Of a stretch of 64,000 bases of DNA, positions 33,318-58,269 are shown in pieces. The DNA lies in the NCBI RefSeq assembly GCF_033153115.1, contig NW_026889785.1, positions 9,114,001 to 9,178,000 of the forward strand, read 5' to 3'. A program made the position numbers and the translations under genes. Origin of the DNA: Saccostrea echinata (Eukaryota). The notes below the pieces were generated by a model. That model was not told the origin of the DNA, did no database searches, and was given only the letters and a program-made list of their open reading frames with translations. The stretch's first letter is position 1. Each line of letters opens with the position of its first letter.

Positions 33318-33508
33318 AGTAGTAAGGGGGACAGAGTACAGTCAGTATACAGTCACGATGACGTCATGGGGTTTTCCAGACCCCGCCCACATAGGTCATA
33401 ATATGGGTCACAGTCAAGGGGTGAGTCTACAGTCAATGACGTCATAGGTATCTAAGTGCAAAGAGTGAGTCTACAGTCAATGACCTCACGAGGTAGTTCA
33501 CAGTCAAG
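33318..33508 (+). repeat. Polinton left TIR
   Basis: Reverse complement of 55822-56012. Confidence 0.96.
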
Positions 33509-33690
33509 AGTGAGTCTACAGTCGCTGAGGATATTTAAGTGCACCAAGTGCGTCTACAGTCATTGAGGTCATTACAGTCAAGATCAAGCATTTCACAGTT
33601 TAGTGTGTCAAAGTGTGTTCACAAGGTTTTTTCACAGTCAAATACAGAAAAAAAGCAATAAATACCACAAACATTTAATTTGTTTTTGTT

Positions 33691-33930
33691 ATGACGATGA
33701 ATACTCAGGAAAAGCAGTACAAGTGGAAAATTTTAGCCTGGAGTGCTATAAGAAGAAATGAGAACAAATGGACATTGCAAGAAAGTCAATGGTTTGACAA
33801 AAAAGAGGATTGCATTGCTGATTTTAAGGAAAAAATGAAAAATGGTTATGACATTGCAGACTGCTGGGGATCTGAAGAATACCTACTAAAACGTCGAATT
33901 ATGCCAAAGAAATACTTCCCACATTCCTGA
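33691..33930 (+). CDS. Polinton hypothetical protein (79 aa, Trp-rich)
   Basis: ATG ORF, first in the left gene block, 12 nt upstream of the next ORF; no motif recognised. Confidence 0.6.
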   Translation: MTMNTQEKQYKWKILAWSAIRRNENKWTLQESQWFDKKEDCIADFKEKMKNGYDIADCWGSEEYLLKRRIMPKKYFPHS

Positions 33931-33942
33931 TAAAATATAGCT

Positions 33943-34170
33943 ATGTTAAAAATTCAACGAGGGAGTGGATGCATAAAAAAACTTAAATTTAATGATCATG
34001 TACAAGTAATTTTAATTCCATATGAAGATCGAAAGGGGATTTGGATGGAATTTGCCATAGATAGAGCTCATTTTAAGAGGAGAGTTCAACAAACGGAAAA
34101 TATTTTATTACCTGTGCTTCTTCAGAAGTTCAAACAATGTACACTTTACAGTCAAAAGAACGAAAAATAG
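33943..34170 (+). CDS. GADD34/ICP34.5/DP71L-like PP1-binding eIF2alpha phosphatase adaptor (75 aa)
   Basis: KKLKF (RVxF), VQVI, RKGIWMEFAIDRAHFKRRV..TENILLPVL match the PPP1R15 C-terminal core. Confidence 0.85.
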   Translation: MLKIQRGSGCIKKLKFNDHVQVILIPYEDRKGIWMEFAIDRAHFKRRVQQTENILLPVLLQKFKQCTLYSQKNEK

Positions 34171-34258
34171 GAAAAAGGGAGTGTCTCCCATTTTCGCCTA
34201 ATATGTATAAATAAGTGCCAGTGTGTTAAGTCAGCATACAGTGTTTTATACTGTGAAA

Positions 34259-34690
34259 ATGGATGGTCTTGTAGTAGAGAGAATGCTGAGGAGAATATCT
34301 TTCCAATGGATTCGACGCTTGAACGACTGTTTTCTCGTTTTAACAAGAAGAGAAGAAGAAGATCTAGTGTGGATCTTAATGTACCTGATGCAATGCCAGA
34401 AACTGGCACTTACCATTAAAGGGAAACTTAAGACTTTTAAAAAAGAGAATCTAAACATACCATTATCAAAGTGGAAAAAACTAACGAAGTTAGTGAATGA
34501 TCTTAAAAGGAAAACAGAGGGAATGGACGTGCAGCTCTCTGCAACAATGAGGAAAAAAGAAACACGCCACGCATGTGCTTATTATTTTGGAAAAACACTG
34601 TACAAGACTACAAAGGAATTACTTGAGACGCTTCAAAAAACTCGTAAATTCATAAAAACCAACCGAAAGAACTTTGTTGTGCAAAAATAA
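34259..34690 (+). CDS. Polinton hypothetical basic protein (143 aa)
   Basis: ATG at 34259, upstream TATAAATAAGT at 34206; Lys-rich; no motif recognised. Confidence 0.6.
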   Translation: MDGLVVERMLRRISFQWIRRLNDCFLVLTRREEEDLVWILMYLMQCQKLALTIKGKLKTFKKENLNIPLSKWKKLTKLVNDLKRKTEGMDVQLSATMRKKETRHACAYYFGKTLYKTTKELLETLQKTRKFIKTNRKNFVVQK

Positions 34691-35035
34691 CTGTCAAATG
34701 TGCCTATTGATTAAGAAAAAAAACAAGTTAATTTTACAAAGTATGTAAACAGACATTTGTACAATCAAGAGGTCACAGTCAATTGTTCTACAGTCAGTGC
34801 GTTCTACAGTCAACAGATTTCCACAGGAAGTGCATTCTACAGTCGGTGCGTTCTACAGTCAAAAATTCTACAATTGGTTCATTTTACAGACATGATTCTA
34901 CAGTCAATAGCCACGTGACTTGAATCATATATAAACTTTGAAAATTTCAAAAAGTTTCATCAGTTCTGAGCAAATCTCAGACAGGATACAACTCTGCTTT
35001 TTTTGTTCCTTGTGAGATCCTTGTCAGCAGCAGAA

Positions 35036-36019
35036 ATGGAGCAAAAACATCAAGACTTGATTAAGGCAAACTACTCGACATTGGTGAAGAAGATGATGGC
35101 TGTTCCTGTTGCGGGACATCTTTACGCCTCAAACATAATTACCGATGAAATGAGACAACAGATAGACGCTGAGAAAACCAGCTATGACAAAAACAGAAAA
35201 TTGATCAGCTTCATTTTACGTCGAGGTTCGAGAGCTTTTATGGGACTTAGAATGGCATTAATGAAAGCCAATCAAGCTGACTTATCCCGACTCCTAATGA
35301 ATAAGGATGATGACACAAAGTCTGAGTACGAAAAGAAGCTGGACATGGCAAGATCATTAGTCGTTAATACTAAAGAAAGAGGAGGTTCCAGAAATCAATC
35401 AAAGAAAGTCGATCATCAACAGTCTCAGGAGCCAAGATGTAGGATAAGTTTGGATGACTTTAATGACCTATTCCTCACCGTCATGCCTTTTAAGGGGGAG
35501 ATTTACGTCCACATCCGTCATTTCACAGAATCGCATGGTCGTTTCATTGCCACCAAGAAGGGAGTTACCTTTCCTTTAGCCCGTTGGTTAAAGTTTGAAT
35601 CTCTCTTACCAGATATTCAAGACTACATTGACAATACTGGAAAAGAGGATGAAGAAGCACAGTGGCATGTTGGTGGAGGTGTGTTCGTTTCGTTATCACC
35701 AGGCTATCCGACAGTGGACATAAGACACTTTTGGAAGCCAGACAATGTTCAAGAACCTATACCTACAAGGAAAGGTGTAACTCTAAACAGAAACAAATTT
35801 GCCAGACTTATCGATGTCATCGGGGAGATGCATGAATGTGTTCCAGAACTAAAAGACATTGAACTTTGCATGCTCAGCGAGTCTCATCAAAATCAGCTTG
35901 GAATGTTAAGCTGCCCGGAATGTACCCCCTTTGGCTACGATCCACAAGACAATATATCAATGGAATGTAACGCCGGTGATTTACAAGACAGGGAAACCAT
36001 TGAAAATGATCTTGAATGA
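35036..36019 (+). CDS. CARD + two PC4-like ssDNA-binding domains + C-H-CxxC finger (327 aa)
   Basis: N-terminal death-fold pattern (LIKANYSTLVKKM..HLYASNIITDEMRQQI..KNRKLISFILRRGSRAF..LRMAL..QADLSRLL); PC4 signatures FKGEIYVHIRHF..TKKGVTF..W and VDIRHFW..PTRKGVTL. Confidence 0.82.
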   Translation: MEQKHQDLIKANYSTLVKKMMAVPVAGHLYASNIITDEMRQQIDAEKTSYDKNRKLISFILRRGSRAFMGLRMALMKANQADLSRLLMNKDDDTKSEYEKKLDMARSLVVNTKERGGSRNQSKKVDHQQSQEPRCRISLDDFNDLFLTVMPFKGEIYVHIRHFTESHGRFIATKKGVTFPLARWLKFESLLPDIQDYIDNTGKEDEEAQWHVGGGVFVSLSPGYPTVDIRHFWKPDNVQEPIPTRKGVTLNRNKFARLIDVIGEMHECVPELKDIELCMLSESHQNQLGMLSCPECTPFGYDPQDNISMECNAGDLQDRETIENDLE

Positions 36020-36211
36020 CAATGAACACTAATCCAACATAATTAATGATATGGGTGTAACATTTATTTATTATTTATTGTGTATCTATCTTTTATGTTA
36101 CTATTTCATTCTAACAATATCAAAATAAAATAGTTCAAAATATACCTTGTATTTTTTTACAATGATATAAAATGTTACAACCGAAGAGAGAGATCATTAT
36201 TATGTTTCAGT

Positions 36212-37369
36212 ATGCCAGACTATACGGATTACTTAAGAGAGCTCTACTACACCCCCGGTAAATCGGGGGCCTATGCAGGGCCTGAAAAATTATATCAAGC
36301 TGTTAAACAGGAAGGCAAATACAAGATTGGTAGACGGAGAATAAGACAGTTTTTAAACAATGAAGATTCTTATAGTCTGTATAAACCTATTCGTAAAACA
36401 TTTCCGCGTTCAAAGGTGATAGTGAACACCATTGACTCTATGTGGGATGGTGACTTGGCAGACGTTTCAAACATTGCATCCCATAATGATGGATTTAAAT
36501 TCTTATTAGTGCTTATTGATATATTTAGTCGATATTTATTTATAGTCCCCTTACAAAATAAACATCATCAGAACATTGTTGATGGTTTAAAATCAGTTTT
36601 CCAAAAAGGACGAAAACCTAACACCCTTAGAACAGATAAGGGTAGCGAATTTAAAAATCGTTGGGTAAAGACATTTCTGAAAAAAGAGGGAATAAACGTC
36701 ATATACACTCAAAATGAAACAAAAGCAAATTATGCCGAGAGGGTAATTCGAACCATGAAGAACCTAATGTATCGTTATTTCATGAAGAATCGAACCTACC
36801 GTTTTGTGAATGTTTTGCAAGACTTGGTAAACAGTTACAACAATAGACCTCACAGATCATTAGGTGGGAATGCTCCAACCAATGTGAACCAAGAAAATGT
36901 CGATGAAATAAGACTCGAGTCTTATCTTTCGGGGAAAACAAAACTAGATCTGACCAAAAACGATCTGAACCAGTCTAATGAATCAAGCAAAACAAAAGTG
37001 AAAAAAAGAGTGAAACCCTTTTTCAAATTAAAAATTGGAGATAATGTCAGAATATCACAACTAAAATACCCTTTTCAAAGAGACTACCAACAGAAATGGA
37101 CAGAAGAGTTTTTTAAAGTGAGTGAAAGATACAAACGCGGTCAATTACCTGTGTACAAGGTAAAAGATTTAGCAGACGACCCTATAGAAGGTACATTCTA
37201 TGAGCCTGAGCTTCAAAAAGTCATAAAGTCAGAAGACGTTTCTTATAGAGTGGAGAAAATTCTTAAAAGAAGACGTCGTGGTAAAGCCAAAGAGGTGTAT
37301 GTAAAATGGGAAGGATGGCCAAAAAAATTTAATTCATGGATTCCGGAGAGCTCTCTGGAAAAACAATAA
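36212..37369 (+). CDS. Retroviral-like (rve) integrase with C-terminal chromodomain
   Basis: WDGDLAD, IDIFSRY, RTDKGSEF, AERVIRT, YNNRPH; YRVEKIL...YVKWEGWPKKFNSWIP. Confidence 0.96.
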   Translation: MPDYTDYLRELYYTPGKSGAYAGPEKLYQAVKQEGKYKIGRRRIRQFLNNEDSYSLYKPIRKTFPRSKVIVNTIDSMWDGDLADVSNIASHNDGFKFLLVLIDIFSRYLFIVPLQNKHHQNIVDGLKSVFQKGRKPNTLRTDKGSEFKNRWVKTFLKKEGINVIYTQNETKANYAERVIRTMKNLMYRYFMKNRTYRFVNVLQDLVNSYNNRPHRSLGGNAPTNVNQENVDEIRLESYLSGKTKLDLTKNDLNQSNESSKTKVKKRVKPFFKLKIGDNVRISQLKYPFQRDYQQKWTEEFFKVSERYKRGQLPVYKVKDLADDPIEGTFYEPELQKVIKSEDVSYRVEKILKRRRRGKAKEVYVKWEGWPKKFNSWIPESSLEKQ

Positions 37370-37404
37370 AAGCCATCATTTTTTAGCAATTTCTCTCATT
37401 CAAA

Positions 37405-37827
37405 ATGAGTGTTCGAATGGTGTTGACGTCTACGGACAGCTCTGAATATTTTGAAAATAAACCCAATTGCTTTCGAGTTCAATTAAATAAACAGATTCAA
37501 TTTGACGGATATTGGACTGTTGCCCTGACAGAATTTTCTACAGAGAGTTGGTTGTCATCTAAGAAGAAATCAGAGTTGTTTGTGTGTTGTGATATTTGTG
37601 AGGAAACGATAATTGGGGGAAAAGAGGCACCCCTTCTAAGACGCGTATACCTAGGTGAGAAACCAGAAAGTATCACTTACACACTACCTTATTACATTCC
37701 AGTTAAAATTAGCCAATTACAGCAGATCGCTATATATATAACAGACAGAGAAGGAAACTTAGTTTCATTCTTAAACGGACCGGTGACTGTAACACTTCAT
37801 TTCAAGAAGTTTCCATACGTTTTATGA
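37405..37827 (+). CDS. Minor capsid protein (penton-like single jelly-roll), short form
   Basis: LTSTDSSEYF.N...FRVQL..I...GYWTVAL.E, CDICEE.IIG....PLLRRV, YIPV, VTLHFKK resemble Polinton mCP. Confidence 0.75.
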   Translation: MSVRMVLTSTDSSEYFENKPNCFRVQLNKQIQFDGYWTVALTEFSTESWLSSKKKSELFVCCDICEETIIGGKEAPLLRRVYLGEKPESITYTLPYYIPVKISQLQQIAIYITDREGNLVSFLNGPVTVTLHFKKFPYVL

Positions 37828-38342
37828 TGAATAGCCAAACGTACGTGAGTGATCCCAGAATATGGGAAGCTTTCTACAAGAACATGGCAGAGAAAAAATT
37901 CAACCCTTACAAATACAAGCCAAAACAAATTGGGAGAGGTGTGAGAAGTTACAAGTCTTACGTCATCCCGCTGAGGCCTCACTCGCAGTTAGAACCTGTA
38001 GAAAACAGCACTCAAGTGACTCCAGTAGCTGCTGTGGAGGAAAGAGCTAAAGTGGAACATGCCAAGGACGTTAAAGAGGGGGTTCCATTTGTCAAAGTAC
38101 AGGGGAGTATAAAAAGGCCACATTCACAATCTTCTGTCATTCCTTCAAAGAAATTGAAGCCAACAACATCTCGAAATCCGAGGAAAAAACAGTCAACTAA
38201 ATCTGCAAAACAAAGAAAGGCCTCAGCAGTGAAGAAAAAGAAGACTGTTAAGAAACAACGACGAGCGCCACGCAAGAAAACACAGTCGAGAAAAAAGAAA
38301 GAATTTAACATTGACAGTTACAGAAGTGTCTTTAAACAGTAA
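37824..38342 (+). CDS. Basic, putative DNA-condensing core protein
   Basis: Very K/R-rich C-terminus, QIGRG motif, located between the two capsid genes. Confidence 0.6.
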   Translation: MMNSQTYVSDPRIWEAFYKNMAEKKFNPYKYKPKQIGRGVRSYKSYVIPLRPHSQLEPVENSTQVTPVAAVEERAKVEHAKDVKEGVPFVKVQGSIKRPHSQSSVIPSKKLKPTTSRNPRKKQSTKSAKQRKASAVKKKKTVKKQRRAPRKKTQSRKKKEFNIDSYRSVFKQ

Positions 38343-38344
38343 AA

Positions 38345-50400: not shown

Positions 50401-50934
50401 TAAAAAAATAAAAAAGGATCATTCAGCAACACACTGTGGCCTTCATATGTTATATTCAGGAACTACCGTAATAAGAAAGGGGTCGATTTACACATGTGCA
50501 CACATCTTTAGCAGAAAAATCAATAATACCACGTGACGTAGCATAAGCCACTTGTAAAGTGTTGACGGGGGACTGGTTTTGAAATGATACTTCTTTATGT
50601 GGCGGATTCAGGATTTACTGTTCCCAAAAAAAAGGGGGGGGGGTGTTGGAGTCGAAATCTAATTTACATGCGTTTTAAATTTTGTAAAAATGCATAATTT
50701 GCACTTACCACAAATACGACCACGAAGATCTCGAATCTTTATCATGGCAGGGTCCCCGAAGACAATCACCCGGTTAAGTCCACAGGATGTCACAAACACT
50801 TCACGAACTTCCGTCACGTTCACCCGGACTTCTCGACAGTCCGGCCAGTAACATGTCAACACCCTCCTGTCTACAGGTGCATTTTGCACCGATACAATAC
50901 ATGTCATAATGATTACGAGCGTTCTGTCGTCCAT
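47403..50934 (-). CDS. Spliced type I membrane mucin-stalk protein; exons 50934-50709, 49960-49904, 49654-49595, 49355-49323, 49125-49063, 48818-48786, 48603-48544, 48415-48371, then 48166-47883 or 48166-48080 + 47824-47403
   Basis: All junctions are GT-AG phase 1 and all internal exons are multiples of 3; signal peptide, 4-Cys head, Thr/Ser/Pro-rich stalk, TM followed by basic residues. Confidence 0.78.
48610..49780. repeat. ~535-bp tandem duplication that duplicates an exon pair
   Basis: Identical 33-nt exons at 48786 and 49323; near-identical exons at 49063 and 49595 with shared intron sequence. Confidence 0.85.
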
Positions 50935-52759
50935 CTTGCAATTACACACTTTGAACTGGTCATATGTGCACGTGATAAAAAAGCGCGCGAAGTACCCCGG
51001 TCAACATCCCCCCGACGTATAGAATAACACCATTTATCACTTTAATGATTTTTTTGTTTAAGAGTGTCTGTTTAGAAACTATCACATAAATGATGTATGG
51101 TAAACAATTGTCAACAGAAAATGTTTTGTTTATTTGGAGGGGAGGGATGGGGGATAAGGTAATGACACAGTTTATAACCTTATAGATAACCTTTTTTTTG
51201 GTACAGGTCAGGGATCAGCTTATCTAAGTCATGTTTTACAACCTAATTCAGAATTCTTAACTAAAAAATTTTTTTCTAATCCATAAAGTTTTATTTTGAA
51301 GTCATGTGTCAAAATGATGTAGATTCTGTGTATTTATTAATAAAAATAAAAGTATGAGCTGTTTTCCGTGGTCAATACTCTTACCTTCTCCTTCGTACGT
51401 ATACATGTATGTTATATATGTTTATATATGTCATGTACCATTTACATGGATTTGAGTGAATAAATTGAAATGAATTAAATTGTGAGCTTTTAAAATAAAT
51501 AATAACTTTTTTATATTTCTTAACTTTAAGATGAATAACTATAACTAATATTTTATCTGAAACTTAATCCAATTTAAGAACTCCAGTTATACATACAACA
51601 TCGCTCGATCGTGATATGGAATCGTCGATTGATGAATTGTGATATTGAAAGTGGCTGTACTTTTTTCAGCTCTTTTTTTACATAAATTCTAATTTTGATT
51701 GATCGGGAGTTGATCAAAATTGTTATGGTGTGTATGTTAATAATAATTGATTATTAGATTAATAAGGTTTTAGAAGATAAGTCAACTCGAAGAAGGATAA
51801 ATACTAATTTATGTTTGGCGCAATTTTCAAGGCTAAACTAGACAAACTTTTTTTTTCTGAACACTCGGGTATTGATGAACTTGAGAGTTACAGTGGAGAC
51901 GCGTGATAGTTTGGGCGCAATTTCCAAGGCTAAATTGACATACTTTTTTTCTTTAACACACTCATGCAGGTATAGATAAACTTGTATCCTTGGGAGTTAC
52001 ACAAGAGACGCGTGATAGTTTTGGCGCATTTTCTTGCTGGATATTAAAATGAAATTTTACAACATAAAGACAAAAATAGAGAAACAACGATTAATTTAAT
52101 TGCAGAATAGATTAATTCAAATTCATTTCAAAAAAATGTAATAATAGACATTACAAGACCAACATCACATTTCCTTACAATTTCTCCGTTTTGAAATTAA
52201 TAATCTTTATTTATATGTTAAATGACTTTTTATGCCTTTTCTGAGCTTCAACATATATCTGAGATATTGTCTGGTTTAATAACCCCAGTTAAATACAACA
52301 TCGCTCGATCATAATATGAAATTGTCGATTGATGGATTGTGATTTGGGAAATAAATGAATTTATTCGGGTCTTTTTAAAATAAATTTTAATTGTTATTGA
52401 TCAAGAGTTTATTAAAATTATGTTGTCTTTAGTTAAATTTTTGCATTGAGAAGTTTTAGAAAATAAGCCAATCCGTAGAAGGATAAATGCTACGCAACAG
52501 ACGCATGTCAGTTTTGGCGCAATTTTCAACCATGCTGACTTGACATGAACGTTAATACCTTTTTAGGACTTTCTCAATGTTGACCCCTCAAAAAGGGACA
52601 TTTAGCCCCCATATCGACCTTTGTAAAATCATGATTTAGATTCCCACCCAAAAGCGAACACCTATAAATACGTGATGTTTCCGTCACTCTACCATCAGTC
52701 GAATAATTACCATTATAAACTTAAGACAATCCTCCTCCTCCTCCTCCTCCTCCAACATA

Positions 52760-54753
52760 ATGGCGCAGAAATATCTAGACATGATGTAAGTGTATTTTTC
52801 CTATTTCAATTTTAAAATTTTGTAAAACTAATAATATATGTATCTTAAATGTTAAAATAATAAAGCATTAAATCAAATTTAATTTTAAAAAAATCCAATC
52901 TTTTGTGATCATCTTTGATAATATATTATATAAATACCCCCTTATATATTTTGTTATATTTTTTAAACATTAATTTAGGTTTTAAAAATGTTAATGTTAT
53001 ATTATTTTTTTAAAAAAAAGGGATCAGGAAAAGGCAAGAACATTTAAGGATTTTGAGGACGAATGGGTGGCATTAGGAGAGGAACTCTGCCTTAATGCAT
53101 TTCAACCAGGGTAAGTTGAATGCTAAGAAAATTGAGTATAAATTCTACAAAAATAATACAAAAATAAAATTACAATATTTTTAAATAAGAGATATATTAC
53201 TATTTGAAATAAGTTAAATGTATTTTCTATAATTACATAAGAAAACCCCACTTTTTTAATATAAAACCTAACATTGATATTGATATAGAAATTCTCCTAA
53301 AGAAGAAAACACCCAGAGCCAACCCATCTCTCGAAAAAGACATTTATCCGAAACGGAGGATTCCTACATTTTAAATCAAAGGTATGTTTTATTTTTATGA
53401 ATTTCTTTAACAATTATTTAATATTATGTTAACACATAATTGTTTATATGTTATACCATATTCAAACATTTCGTTTTGAGACTTACTATACATGCATTAC
53501 CTCAAATTTCAACTAGGACTTGACGTAGCATTGTGAGTTTGTAAATATTTGATTTATCTGCAGAAGACTAAAGCAACAAAAGAGAACAGATGACGATCAA
53601 CAAAAGAGAAGGGATGACGATAGCATAATCACCAANNNNNNNNNNNNNNNNNNNNNNNNNNNNNNNNNNNNNNNNNNNNNNNNNNNNNNNNNNNNNNNNN
53701 NNNNNNNNNNNNNNNNNNNNNNNNNNNNNNNNNNNNNNNNNNNNNNNNNNNNNNNNNNNNNNNNNNNNNTTTAAATTTTTATTGATATACTATGGTACAT
53801 AGTATACATATAATACAAGCGAAATAAATTTCCAACTTTTGAATGTGGCATATAATAATAGCTGTTATTACTTTATTAAATTTTGGAAAAAAAAATTAGT
53901 AGTTATCTTTCCGGTTTTTTTTTTTTTGGTATTCAGAAAAAGGGACCCTTTAAGATTTAAAAAACTGGAGGAGAGGATAGGAGAAGACGGAACTCCCGGG
54001 TGTTGGTCCTCAGAGGGACTAAAGGCAGTAGCGACAATTACCCGGTACTCGCCCCAGTCTCCGGAATGCAGCGCCGCTGCGACTAGTACTGGGTTCTTGC
54101 CCCAGTCGCCGCCCCAGTCACTGGATTGCAGCACCAACGCGACAATTACCGGGTACTCGCCCCAGTCGCCGGAATGCACCGCATTAACCTCGGAGGGACT
54201 CAAGGCAGTAGCGACAATTACCCGGTACTCACCCCAGTCGCCGGAATGCACCGCATTAACCTCGGAGGGACTCAAGGCAGTAGCGACAATTACCCGGTAC
54301 TTACCCAAGTCGCCGGAATGCAGCGCCGCCGCGACTAGTACTGGGTTCTCGCCCCAGTCGCCGTCCCAGTCACTGGATTGCAGCACCAACGCGACAATTA
54401 CCGGGTACTCGCCCCAGTCGCCCGAATTCAACACCAACGCGACAATTACCGGGTACTCACCCCAGTCGCCGGATTGCAGCACCAACGCGACAATTACCGG
54501 GTACTCGCCCCAGTCGCCCGAATTCAACACCGCCGCGGCAAAGGGTGGTTACTTGACCCAATCACCCGGGCAGTCTAACACTACACCTGTGACCAGTTTG
54601 GATTTCTTAAAACGTGTAGTTGGCGGTGCCTTCCCCCTTCATAGGGAATTGGATGCCCTGAATGAGTTGGTCGACAGCATGAGAGTCGACCTGTTGCAGA
54701 CATCCATGCTGCTTAATTATGTTAAAGATTTTTTAAAGAGTTATAAATTTTAA
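52760..54753 (+). CDS. Spliced protein with YSPQSP repeats; exons 52760-52785, 53021-53110, 53289-53381, 53564-(gap), 53937-54753
   Basis: TATA 52663 and TCAGT 52695; all visible junctions are GT-AG phase 2; last exon has 6 exact YSPQSP plus 4 variants and a helical C-terminus. Confidence 0.7.
53636..53769. other. Assembly gap (N run)
   Basis: 134 N. Confidence 1.
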
Positions 54754-55009
54754 TTTCAATTGATTATACCTCTTTTTCTTATTGAAAAAGACTATTATTG
54801 TGTATCATAGTGTACCATTGTGAACAATGCCAAGAAAGTTAACTCTGGCAAACATTGTATGAAACATATACATGTTAGAGTTGCTTTTCTTTCTATAATT
54901 CAAAGGGATTGGATTACCGAGTGAGTTGCTCGACTTTTTGAGAGTCCTCTTGTAGTAAATTCTAAGTTAAACTGATTATCCCTATAGATATTTTGTTTAA
55001 TATTTATGA

Positions 55010-55292
55010 AAATGAATGAGTTGGTTGACAGCATAAGAGTCGACCTGTTGCAGACATCCATGTTGATTGATTATGCTAAACATTTTTAAAGAGTTATAAA
55101 TTTTAATTTCAATTGATTATACCTCTATGATTTGTTTGTATTTTTATTAAAAAGACTACCATTGTCTTAAATAGTGTACCATTGTGATTTTTTAAAGTTA
55201 TAAATTTTAATTTCAATTGATTATACCTTTATGTTTTGTTGTATTTTATTGAAAAAGACTACCATTATGTATCATAGTGTACCATTGTGAAC
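55010..55292 (+). repeat. Partial duplications of the 3' end and UTR of the YSPQSP gene
   Basis: aatgagttggt..gagtcgacctgttgcagacatccatg repeats 54660-54830; ttataaattttaatttcaattgattatacc occurs 3 times. Confidence 0.8.
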
Positions 55293-55589
55293 CAGCTATT
55301 GTTTCAAATGTCTGATACAAGTATCTTTGAAACGCAATTAATTTTAATCGGAGGAACCTAGCTATGTTGTCCACTGATTTTTACCAATAAATGATTTTTT
55401 AACAAAAATGTTTATATCGTATAATATCATAAGGTTTATCTCTTATTAAAACCTATATCAATGGCGTCATGTGTTTTGTGTTTCATTTTCCGATATTATT
55501 CAGGTGCTTACCGTGAATGGTTCAGTGGTTCTGTGACTGTAAATGATGTAAATCCAAGGACTTGTCATATTTTATACTGTATCGCACTC

Positions 55590-55780
55590 AGGGGTGTAAC
55601 CGTTAACGCCCATAATATAGAACGGTTTACTGGTTGTTATCAGTTAAAATATGGGACGTGATATATATTGTGGGTGTAACCGTTAACGCCCATAATATAG
55701 AAAGTCATAGTGATTGTTATCAGCTAAAATATGGAACGTCATATACATTGTGGGTGTAACCGTTAACACCCATAAGATAA
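55590..55780. repeat. Subterminal ~80-bp tandem repeat x3
   Basis: gggtgtaaccgttaac(g/a)cccataa at ~55592, 55672, 55752. Confidence 0.85.
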
Positions 55781-55821
55781 GTCACATAAATTTTGTGACG
55801 TCAGTGACTGTGTACTCACCC

Positions 55822-56012
55822 CTTGACTGTGAACTACCTCGTGAGGTCATTGACTGTAGACTCACTCTTTGCACTTAGATACCTATGACGTCATTGACTG
55901 TAGACTCACCCCTTGACTGTGACCCATATTATGACCTATGTGGGCGGGGTCTGGAAAACCCCATGACGTCATCGTGACTGTATACTGACTGTACTCTGTC
56001 CCCCTTACTACT
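55822..56012 (-). repeat. Polinton right TIR
   Basis: Reverse complement of 33318-33508; ends ACTACT. Confidence 0.96.
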
Positions 56013-56018
56013 TGTATT

Positions 56019-58269
56019 GTAGTTACTGTAGGACCTTTCCTGAATGTGCAAACAAAGCAAGTGCTTTATTCAAGGGAACCAATAATTTTAGAATTGATTC
56101 ATTGATTTCTCATGATAAAAATAGTGAACATTTTGTTGCAAGCAGACGCTATTTTACAAAAATTAAAACTGGTGACCAAAATAACAATCGACTCGAACTT
56201 AGAAATTCAAGTGAATCCTGTAGTAGTGGTGCTGTTGATAAATACAAAGAAAAACTGTTACCTACTGTTTCAAGCACAGAAATTGGCAAAGCAATGTACA
56301 GATTATCAGAGGAAGAAAAGAAAAAGATGACCATACTTTTTAACACAGCTTATGCAGTTGCAAAGAATGGAAAACCCTTTACTGATTATCTCTATTTGTA
56401 TGAACTGAATATGTTGAATGGTTTGTATTTGGGTGGCCAGTATATTAACATTCATGCTTGTGAAAGTTTTGTTGAAGCCATAAGTCAAACATATCGAGAG
56501 AAAATTCAGGCTGAAATTCTGAAGACAAACTGTGTTAGTATTCTGGCAGATGGTTCAACTGATGCTGCTGTAATGGAACAGGAAATTGTGTACTTGCGGT
56601 AAGTGTTTCAGTATGAGTATTTTCAGATGATAAACTGTTCTTGTCAGTGGGATTAAGGAATTGTATGGCAAAATAATTGAAAAAAAATTGCATGGAATAA
56701 AAAAATGGTAATATAAAAAGTCTGCATCAATTCATTATTCTTTTATTCTATAATTATTTATTAGGCATGTTCAGCCATATTCTGGAGTTCCTGTATGTAG
56801 ACAAATAGACATAATTGCTGTTCAATCTTCAGATGCCTCTGGAATCCTTGCTGCATTGCACCAGGCTGTAGAAAAGGGTGTGAATATCCACATGAATGAT
56901 CTCCATCCAAATCATGAGGGAACACCATCTCTTATAATGGACAATTTTGATGGAGCATCTGTTAACTTTGGGGCAAAGTCAGGAGTTGTGAAACTGAAGC
57001 AAGATTTTCCAGATCTGTTATCTTTACAATGTGTTGCACATAAATTAGAATTGTCAATTTTAGATGCTGTAAAATGTTGGAAATACCTCAGTGATGTTTT
57101 TGATGAGGCTGCTAAAGGAATATTCAAGTTTTATCACTATTCTCCAAAAAGAAGGAGAGAACTGAAAGCTATTGCAGAGGTACTTGACAAGGATCTAGTG
57201 CATTTTTCAAATGTAAAGCAAGTCAGATGGCTTGCCAGCAAGTCTAGAGCGCTTGCTACTGTAAAAAAAAAATTGAGCAGGTTGTTACTCATCTAAGGAC
57301 AAAAATTTGTCCAGTAAATGTTTAGAAAGTTCAAGCAAAGCTCTAGGCTATGTGAAAAAAATTAAATCTGTCAAATTTGTGAAGGTTTTTCATTTCATGC
57401 TTGATTTTTTACCTATTGTGGCAGATATGTCAAAAGCTTTCCAATCTGAGACTGTGTTGTTGTTTGAAGTACCAATACTTATTCAAGGGGTTATATTGGC
57501 TTTTGAATCACTAAAAACAAATCCAGGAACTCATATGCAAGAATTCCTAGATAGGTTTGATAGTGAGACATGCACATATAGTAGTGTAAAGTAAACAAAC
57601 AAAACCCAAACTCTCAATTACACTGATGATCATGAAGTCACCAAGTTTTTGTCTGATGTTATCACCTATGTGACAAAAAGGTTTGAAACATTGTACCAAC
57701 CACCTTTCTCTTTCTTTAGCATTTTCGATGTGGAAAAACTGGCCAGTCCTCATACCTGAACTTGGCCAATTTGGAGTTAGTGAGTTGATGTTAATTGTCA
57801 ATCACAAAAGCTTTTCATTTTTGTTTACAGAAGAAGAAAAGTTAGTGATTGTATCACAATGGTGTCTTTTAAAAGCTAAAGTAAGACACCTCAGACATGT
57901 ACCATTAGTTGATGTATTTTCTTCATTGATTGCTGAAAACAAAGTGAAAACAATCAGCTGGGTGCTATCTGTAAAGTTGTTGAAGTTATGATGACTCTCT
58001 CTCCCAGTACTGCTAGCTGTGAGAGGGGGTTTTCTATTCAAAACATTTTAAAAACAAACAAAAGAACTAGATTAACTCAAAGTAATCTTAGAAATCAGCT
58101 GCTTCTGATGACGGAAGGCCCCCCTGTAAATGAATTTATTGCAGATGAGAGTATTTCTAAGTGGTTGCTGTCAAGCACCAAAGGAAGACATATTCAGGGG
58201 CACAAACTGAAAGATACAAACAGAGATCCTGATTCAGAAATGTATTATGAAAGTAGTAAAGTAATATGA
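56019..58269 (+). pseudogene. hAT transposase remainder (frameshifts and stops; intron ~56599-56764)
   Basis: SILADGSTD, FDGASVNFG, QCVAHKLEL, VRWLAS and dimerisation motif STASCERGFS, spread over several frames. Confidence 0.9.

Follow-up and report, generated by a model that had tools for sequence, protein, structure and literature searches.

The stretch of Saccostrea echinata DNA that we analysed (64,000 nucleotides, hereafter the window) contains a Polinton/Maverick element of 22.7 kb at 33318-56012, which hosts a gene with YSPQSP repeats close to its right end (Table 1). The terminal inverted repeats of the element (33318-33508 and 55822-56012, 191 nt each) show no mismatches and a 6-bp target duplication is present on both sides, which indicates that the insertion is young. 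Pfam matches above the cut-off identify an integrase (rve, PF00665, with Chromo) and pPolB (DNA_pol_B_2, PF03175). A DJR-like capsid (PF21738, E 0.003) and a Pox_A32 ATPase (PF04665, E 0.001) were matched below the cut-off, in the expected order. In total, the element encodes CARD+PC4, integrase, capsid-like, ATPase-like and pPolB proteins, and the Pfam search found no RNA polymerase gene in it. The terminal repeats, the target duplication and the integrase, capsid-like, ATPase-like and pPolB genes bear out the original prediction, made from the sequence alone, that the repeat gene belongs to a Polinton. Homologues of its last exon (exon 5) occupy the same position in other elements: a same-strand capsid match lies 11-30 kb upstream at at least 19 of 40 exon-5 loci, a count that draws on 50 of the at least 96 capsid matches listed, and many other exon-5 loci have a terminal repeat or a terminal motif within about 2 kb. 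Two elements (L109 and L112, those of copies L005 and L006) have pPolB within 20 kb upstream and no capsid, integrase or ATPase match there; they may be deleted or rearranged derivatives.

Several other features were observed in the element and next to it. Just inside the left end, a 75-aa ORF (33943-34170, + strand) matches PP1c_bdg (PF10488) above the cut-off (E 2e-6), presumably the family of GADD34/ICP34.5-type PP1 regulators. The ORF at 34970-36019 (+) encodes a CARD followed by two PC4 domains, so that an immune-signalling domain is fused to a transcription coactivator domain. Between the two pPolB ORFs lies a stretch of 141 nt with GT-AG ends (43372-43232, - strand), which is predicted from the sequence to be an intron. 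At about 47400-51000 on the - strand lies a divergent, apparently spliced gene. It opens with a hydrophobic Cys-rich part, contains short Thr-rich exons in duplicate and a likely membrane segment, and closes with an acidic tail. It resembles a mucin-like membrane protein, and related elements carry Thr-rich and small Cys-rich ORFs at its position. Partial tandem duplications of the repeat gene's last coding bases and 3' flank are found at 54990-55290 (+), and the extra piece is also present in copies L022-L026. To the right of the element, ORF fragments at 55967-58269 (+), one of them weakly matching zf-C17orf113, probably represent a transposase-derived gene hit by the Polinton insertion.

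Our model of the repeat gene comprises five exons and about 367 codons, the total being obtained by arithmetic. The exon 1 peptide also begins the NCBI models P0001-P0003 (S. cucullata, S. echinata and C. angulata), and compared to copies L005 and L008 this exon carries synonymous changes only. Four public runs (X1-X3 and X11) were examined for splicing. In one contig of X11, introns 2 and 3 are removed at GT-AG sites and the joint between exons 4 and 5 keeps the frame by length. As this contig is 95-99% alike to the locus, comes from a library of unrecorded type, retains the end of intron 1 and has a single base missing at 54051, it documents splicing of a close copy and not of the locus. Splicing of intron 1 was not seen in the reads. 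Runs X1-X3 gave no intron joints; X2 also covers introns, and one X1 contig starts at the first base of exon 5. The spliced gene that had been predicted is thus observed for three of its four introns in the contig of a close copy, intron 1 being the exception. The same contig speaks against an untranscribed gene, the outcome that had been named as fatal to the prediction.

Table 1. Position of the Polinton element, the repeat gene and its parts in the window
Feature	Position	Strand	Basis
Polinton/Maverick element	33318..56012	.	Terminal inverted repeats, target duplication, Pfam matches
Likely promoter: TATA box and initiator-like element about 30 nt downstream	52663..52699	+	TATA by pattern, initiator by eye; putative function
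Exon 1: start codon, 8 codons + 2 nt	52760..52785	+	GT donor at 52786; conservation
Exon 2: acidic amphipathic helix, FxxFxxxWxxL	53021..53110	+	Splice to exon 3 in run X11
Exon 3: linker, basic cluster (candidate nuclear signal), EDS-IL motif	53289..53381	+	GT-AG joints on both sides in X11
Exon 4, visible part; extends a few bases into a stretch of N	53564..53635	+	Frame-keeping joint to exon 5 in X11
Exon 5: short helix, S/T/P-rich linker, long C-terminal helix, stop	53937..54753	+	ORF; acceptor 53935-53936; helices predicted in homologues
Ten CTD-like units, six of them exact YSPQSP	54046..54567	+	Single heptads in 48-, 60- and 72-nt DNA repeats
Conserved C-terminal long helix, likely oligomerisation coil	54637..54750	+	Profile, pN/pS, generic coiled-coil matches

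The non-repeat exons are under purifying selection. Compared to four copies about 82% identical in DNA, dN/dS is 0.08-0.16 over 113-114 codons, rough values with dS near saturation; exon 4 was left out for four copies (<50% ungapped identity). The value of 0.55 obtained with copy L003 is inflated by a deletion in exon 3 of L003. In the region of the C-terminal helix, pN is 0.09-0.15 versus a pS of 0.61-0.66. We also observed that, relative to L005-L008, synonymous divergence reaches 0.6-0.8 in exon 2 and the exon-5 tail, yet introns 1-3 are 81-94% identical. In pPolB, synonymous divergence is only 0.20-0.26 (cleanly aligned parts, two of the L005-L008 elements), in contrast to this exon-restricted divergence in the 52760-54753 gene.

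All ten units of the original prediction, six exact YSPQSP and four variants, were found where it had placed them, in one + frame. The exact units start at 54046, 54154, 54226, 54406, 54454 and 54502; the variants are FLPQSP (54094), YLPKSP (54298), FSPQSP (54346) and YLTQSP (54550). Successive units are spaced by 16, 20, 24, 24, 16, 20, 16, 16 and 16 aa, so that the predicted range of 16-23 aa holds at its lower bound and rises to 24 at its upper one. When the 218-aa linker was shuffled 2000 times, six YSPQSP never arose (shuffle mean 0.002), and YSPxSP is absent from all six frames of the window's other 63,183 nt. The conserved positions of the RNA polymerase II (Pol II) CTD had been described as kept: this is the case for S5-P6, intact in 10/10 units with synonymous variation, and Y1, S2 and P3 are jointly intact in just six. 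At the DNA level the units form a compound minisatellite of 48-, 60- and 72-nt units. Pfam PF05001 matches over them with an E of 0.002, below the cut-off. A PF05001 profile search of the genome gave no match anywhere and is uninformative, since it missed the host RPB1 too. As the original prediction had cautioned, the repeats are not contiguous: this copy has single heptads, with no two tyrosines seven residues apart and no di-heptad, the minimal unit in yeast (with three SP).

The motif was followed across 31 distinct exon-5 frames that have no interruption between head helix and tail helix; copies with frameshifts were excluded. Linkers are 56-221 aa long in 24 of these frames and 5-9 aa in the remaining seven (compact). 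Of the 24 long-linker copies, which are not all independent, 17 carry YSPxSP, against an expectation of 0.1 from shuffling, and 22 carry Y[ST]P. By tree, the long-linker copies make up about 14 lineages (our own grouping, from a tree that leaves the deep branching open), and the exact motif occurs in 10. The amplified DNA units measure 21, 48-72, 51, 54, 168 and 180 nt and their spacers are unrelated. In amino acids, unit length is 16-24 in this copy, 17 in L035, 18 in L033, 56 in L036 and 60 in L048, and the period is exactly 7 in L046, L049, L051, L054, L056 and L062. All repeat periods are multiples of three, which was not counted as evidence given that only open frames had been collected. 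The Ser2 codon is TCN in 13 of 50 motifs (this clade and L064) and AGY in the 37 found elsewhere. Because Ser2 codons are split by lineage in this way, which a DNA-level repeat would not give, conservation lies at the protein level. Degenerate or unrelated units are amplified in some arrays (L005 group, L060 and L064). The check suggested with the original prediction, conservation of YSPxSP with divergence of the spacers, thus came out in its favour: the motif was selectively kept and the spacers diverged.

Ten period-7 arrays occur among 155 sequences, with 51 units and up to 11 units per array; one of them is from Crassostrea gigas, as judged by a cluster mate. Phased on Tyr alone, these arrays have a consensus of Y (84%), S/T (75%), P (88%), A/V/T at position 4, S (80%), P (75%) and G/E/Q/D/K at position 7, and Thr4 and Ser7 are mostly not retained. 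The yeast di-heptad unit is found in 4/31 copies (L046, L051, L056 and L062), and in L049 too if Thr2 is allowed. Owing to these tandem heptads, the resemblance to the CTD is stronger in the relatives than in this copy.

A profile of the last exon retrieved 122 library representatives, and those that are named all come from oysters. YSPxSP was found in 15 of 121 representatives examined, many of which are exon fragments (25 motifs, 0.04 expected). All clades have in common an acidic helix FxxFExxWxx[LM]G, an EDS-IL motif, a short basic helix and a long C-terminal helix, the most conserved parts being the acidic FxxxWxxL helix and the C-terminal helix. Within the family, no motif is better conserved than FxxFxxxWxxL of exon 2 (F, E and W are invariant in 12/12 aligned homologues), and in the EDS-IL motif of exon 3 the D, S and L are nearly invariant. 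The exon 2 helix is predicted in homologue P0023 and is treated here as a putative activation-type helix. The acidic segment and the basic stretches are as originally described, and the C-terminal helix is likewise predicted for homologues. The exact motif is missing from 7/7 compact and 7/24 long-linker copies and is therefore not essential to the family; YSPxSP is a clade-specific module on a protein with another conserved core.

The compact clade (L071-L078 and library proteins including P0023, P0019 and P0010) is without the YSPxSP linker and joins the short basic helix directly to the long C-terminal helix. It usually ends in an RVxF-like tail, which we take to be a candidate PP1-docking site. 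The tail was found in 29 of 107 anchored homologues, after 17 sequences without the anchor had been dropped; YSPxSP occurs in none of the 29 tailed sequences versus 15 of the 78 others, a difference that is confounded by clade. The RVxF motif is absent from this gene. Pfam assigned the full-length homologues to no known family, the PDB sequence-profile search gave nothing (best E 0.077) and Foldseek found no match in the PDB or among viral structures. A wide structural search returned only generic long helices and coiled coils (Z up to 5.3), a protein atlas search no informative match (best 0.85 and 0.79) and an IMG/VR search with P0001 no match. Neither a DNA-binding domain nor a known fold emerged from Pfam, Foldseek and the structural searches.

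We propose that the gene encodes a nuclear motif-hub protein that acts as a free mimic of the Pol II tail and engages CTD kinases and readers, comparable to small DNA virus regulators. Judged from sequence features, we hold this reading with about even confidence. Engagement of host tail-reading enzymes seems likely because the relatives have kept and repeatedly multiplied the YSPxSP word. The basic clusters would bring the protein to the nucleus, and the C-terminal helix may oligomerise and so multiply the display of the motif. CDK7 and CDK9, as CTD-type kinases, would act chiefly on Ser5-Pro6, which does not vary among the units of this copy; the phosphorylated units could then be bound by readers of pSer-Pro (Pin1, capping and CID/WW proteins), and the acidic helix might contact a coactivator. 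Taken together, these steps would bring Pol II factors of the host to the intron-containing genes of the element itself. The Polinton presumably depends on host Pol II, as no RNA polymerase gene was found in it and it carries spliceosomal introns, including a predicted one in pPolB. An adaptor is slightly favoured over a pure sink because of the predicted activation-type helix. The original idea of a CTD mimic or decoy, or of a transactivator, thus gains from the selective retention of the motif, the tandem heptads of relatives and the splicing of a close copy; it loses from the lack of a di-heptad here and from a sister clade without repeats.

Compared to the Pol II CTD, the oyster protein shares Y1, S2-P3 and S5-P6 in an S/T/P-rich region predicted to be disordered, and its relatives share tandem period-7 arrays. 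It differs in being free of a polymerase (Pfam detects no polymerase family in exon 5 or the full-length homologues, and the host RPB1 is on another contig) and in the single heptads of this copy; position 4 is occupied by Q/A/V and position 7 by G/E/D. Moreover, the oyster repeats lie between two helices instead of at the C-terminus, and score below the Pfam cut-off. The minimal CTD unit is reported to be a di-heptad in yeast and a penta-heptad in mammalian cells, and spacer-separated single heptads to fail in supporting CTD function in both (PMC6548728). Given these minima and the absence of a Tyr pair seven residues apart, this copy could not replace a CTD. Single-motif CTD mimics are nevertheless reported, and the Nrd1-interaction motifs of yeast Sen1, Trf4 and Mpp6 are described as short Tyr-anchored CTD mimics in disordered regions (PMC7110113). 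The oyster units are Tyr-anchored as well, and repeat-less members often retain one YSP followed by acidic residues. The yeast motifs are constitutive and have their acidic stretch ahead of the Tyr, whereas the oyster units are repeated and predicted to be phosphorylatable.

PIE-1 of C. elegans has a single, non-phosphorylatable CTD-like heptad. It is reported to decoy P-TEFb from Pol II via cyclin T (PMC548956, PMC2748068). It is, as we propose for the oyster protein, a non-polymerase protein acting on the CTD machinery, and offers a precedent for titration; it is however a host zinc-finger protein, whereas the oyster units are multiple, keep their Ser-Pro sites and reside on a mobile element. 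The gene is also comparable to adenovirus E1A and the adintovirus Oncoids, small accessory proteins of a related DNA virus group that work with short linear motifs. E1A comes from a spliced gene close to a terminal repeat and is not known to have a DNA-binding domain. Oncoids are described as defined by LxCxE and CxxC (bioRxiv 10.1101/697771). Neither motif was found in the five exons as far as these are visible, LxCxE is matched by 2/124 homologues, and the oyster gene lies at the far terminus and not beside pPolB. An Oncoid or E1A-type Rb binder was rejected, as LxCxE and CxxC are absent from the visible part of the gene.

A doubtful but not negligible alternative is that the repeats are a general proline-directed phospho-region or WW ligand (for Pin1 or NEDD4-type ligases, or as a MAPK/GSK3 turnover signal) that tunes the protein's own stability, the CTD likeness being incidental. 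Single spaced units, as in this copy, would suit small readers, and the linkers contain some of the corresponding sites: PPxY in 7/24 (3.3 expected), [ST]PxY in 10/24 (5.2 expected), and MAPK-type and GSK3-type patterns at an enrichment of 2-3 times. However, all these patterns are far less enriched than YSPxSP, this copy has neither PPxY nor [ST]PxY, and the exact period of 7 seen in several lineages is not predicted by a generic phospho or WW signal. For cell-cycle CDK sites the linkers show no enrichment (3 observed versus 6.5 expected), and a cell-cycle CDK substrate was rejected on this ground.

We consider it unlikely that the main function resides in the N-terminal helix, as a mimic of the p53 transactivation domain that binds MDM2 or a coactivator, with the repeats as a mere flexible linker. 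The conserved triad is present in clades with and without repeats, it is the same hydrophobic triad as in p53, again in a predicted acidic amphipathic helix, and the host genome encodes a p53-type motif and an MDM2 (one exon of the host MDM2 matches a Saccostrea protein at 98% identity). However, FxxxWxxL-type patterns are common to many acidic activation helices, the oyster helix has an extra conserved Phe three residues upstream, and no Polinton copy is among the 9 matches of the P53_TAD profile. The FxxxWxxL triad is reported to define MDM2 ligands, but the native mussel p53-MDM2 pair to bind weakly (PMC10303687). This reading also leaves the selection on YSPxSP unexplained. A p53-like helix can in any case be reconciled with the CTD mimic that we prefer.

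A neutral coding minisatellite, sitting in a tolerant loop and carrying the motif along by slippage, is an improbable account of the repeats. Copy number indeed shifts fast (10 units here versus 5 in the 97%-identical copy L003), degenerate units make up 4/10, the array is frameshifted in several copies and a 27-nt array in L064 omits the motif. Yet the same six residues are reached from unrelated unit lengths and codons, the unamplified linkers of L034, L037 and L064 still keep a single exact motif, and among the ten units the S5 and P6 variants are synonymous only while their neighbours change, though in small numbers. At the level of the family, a neutral minisatellite is largely refuted. 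Least credible of all is a recent capture of the array from the host RPB1, or a true frame other than ours (226-codon antisense): two oyster homologues are named 'RPB1-like' by NCBI and the antisense frame is open over the array in this copy, but the best DNA match between a linker and the host RPB1 is 29 nt at 83% (13 nt for this copy), the codons at positions 4 and 5 differ from the host CTD and the same antisense frame is interrupted by stops in 20/24 linkers, so that recent capture was rejected for want of DNA support and the antisense or other frames as not conserved. Since no linker resembles the host RPB1 DNA beyond these 29 nt, the CTD likeness lies at the protein level; an old capture from RPB1 is conceivable.

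Binding or alteration of the Pol II CTD by viruses is known, as are a few host proteins that imitate it. In the literature that we searched, main texts with few subscription papers among them, a viral or transposon protein that mimics the CTD on its own was nowhere described, and neither was this family. The main text of the adintovirus preprint does not mention oysters, splicing or PC4 (10.1101/697771). As a natural series of 0-11 units with 7-60 aa spacing on one scaffold, the family could help to tell which readers of the CTD accept single versus tandem heptads. Going by the motifs of the two clades, it is a tentative possibility that one of them engages CTD kinases and readers via a virus-made, free-standing CTD copy that evolved repeatedly as repeats expanded, up to true tandem heptads, and that its sister clade docks PP1 on the same scaffold. 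If true, one mobile-element gene would offer two opposite routes to rewire host CTD phosphorylation. The family accounts for oyster genes labelled 'RPB1-like' by NCBI, and may give a first handle on host-transcription control by animal Polintons.
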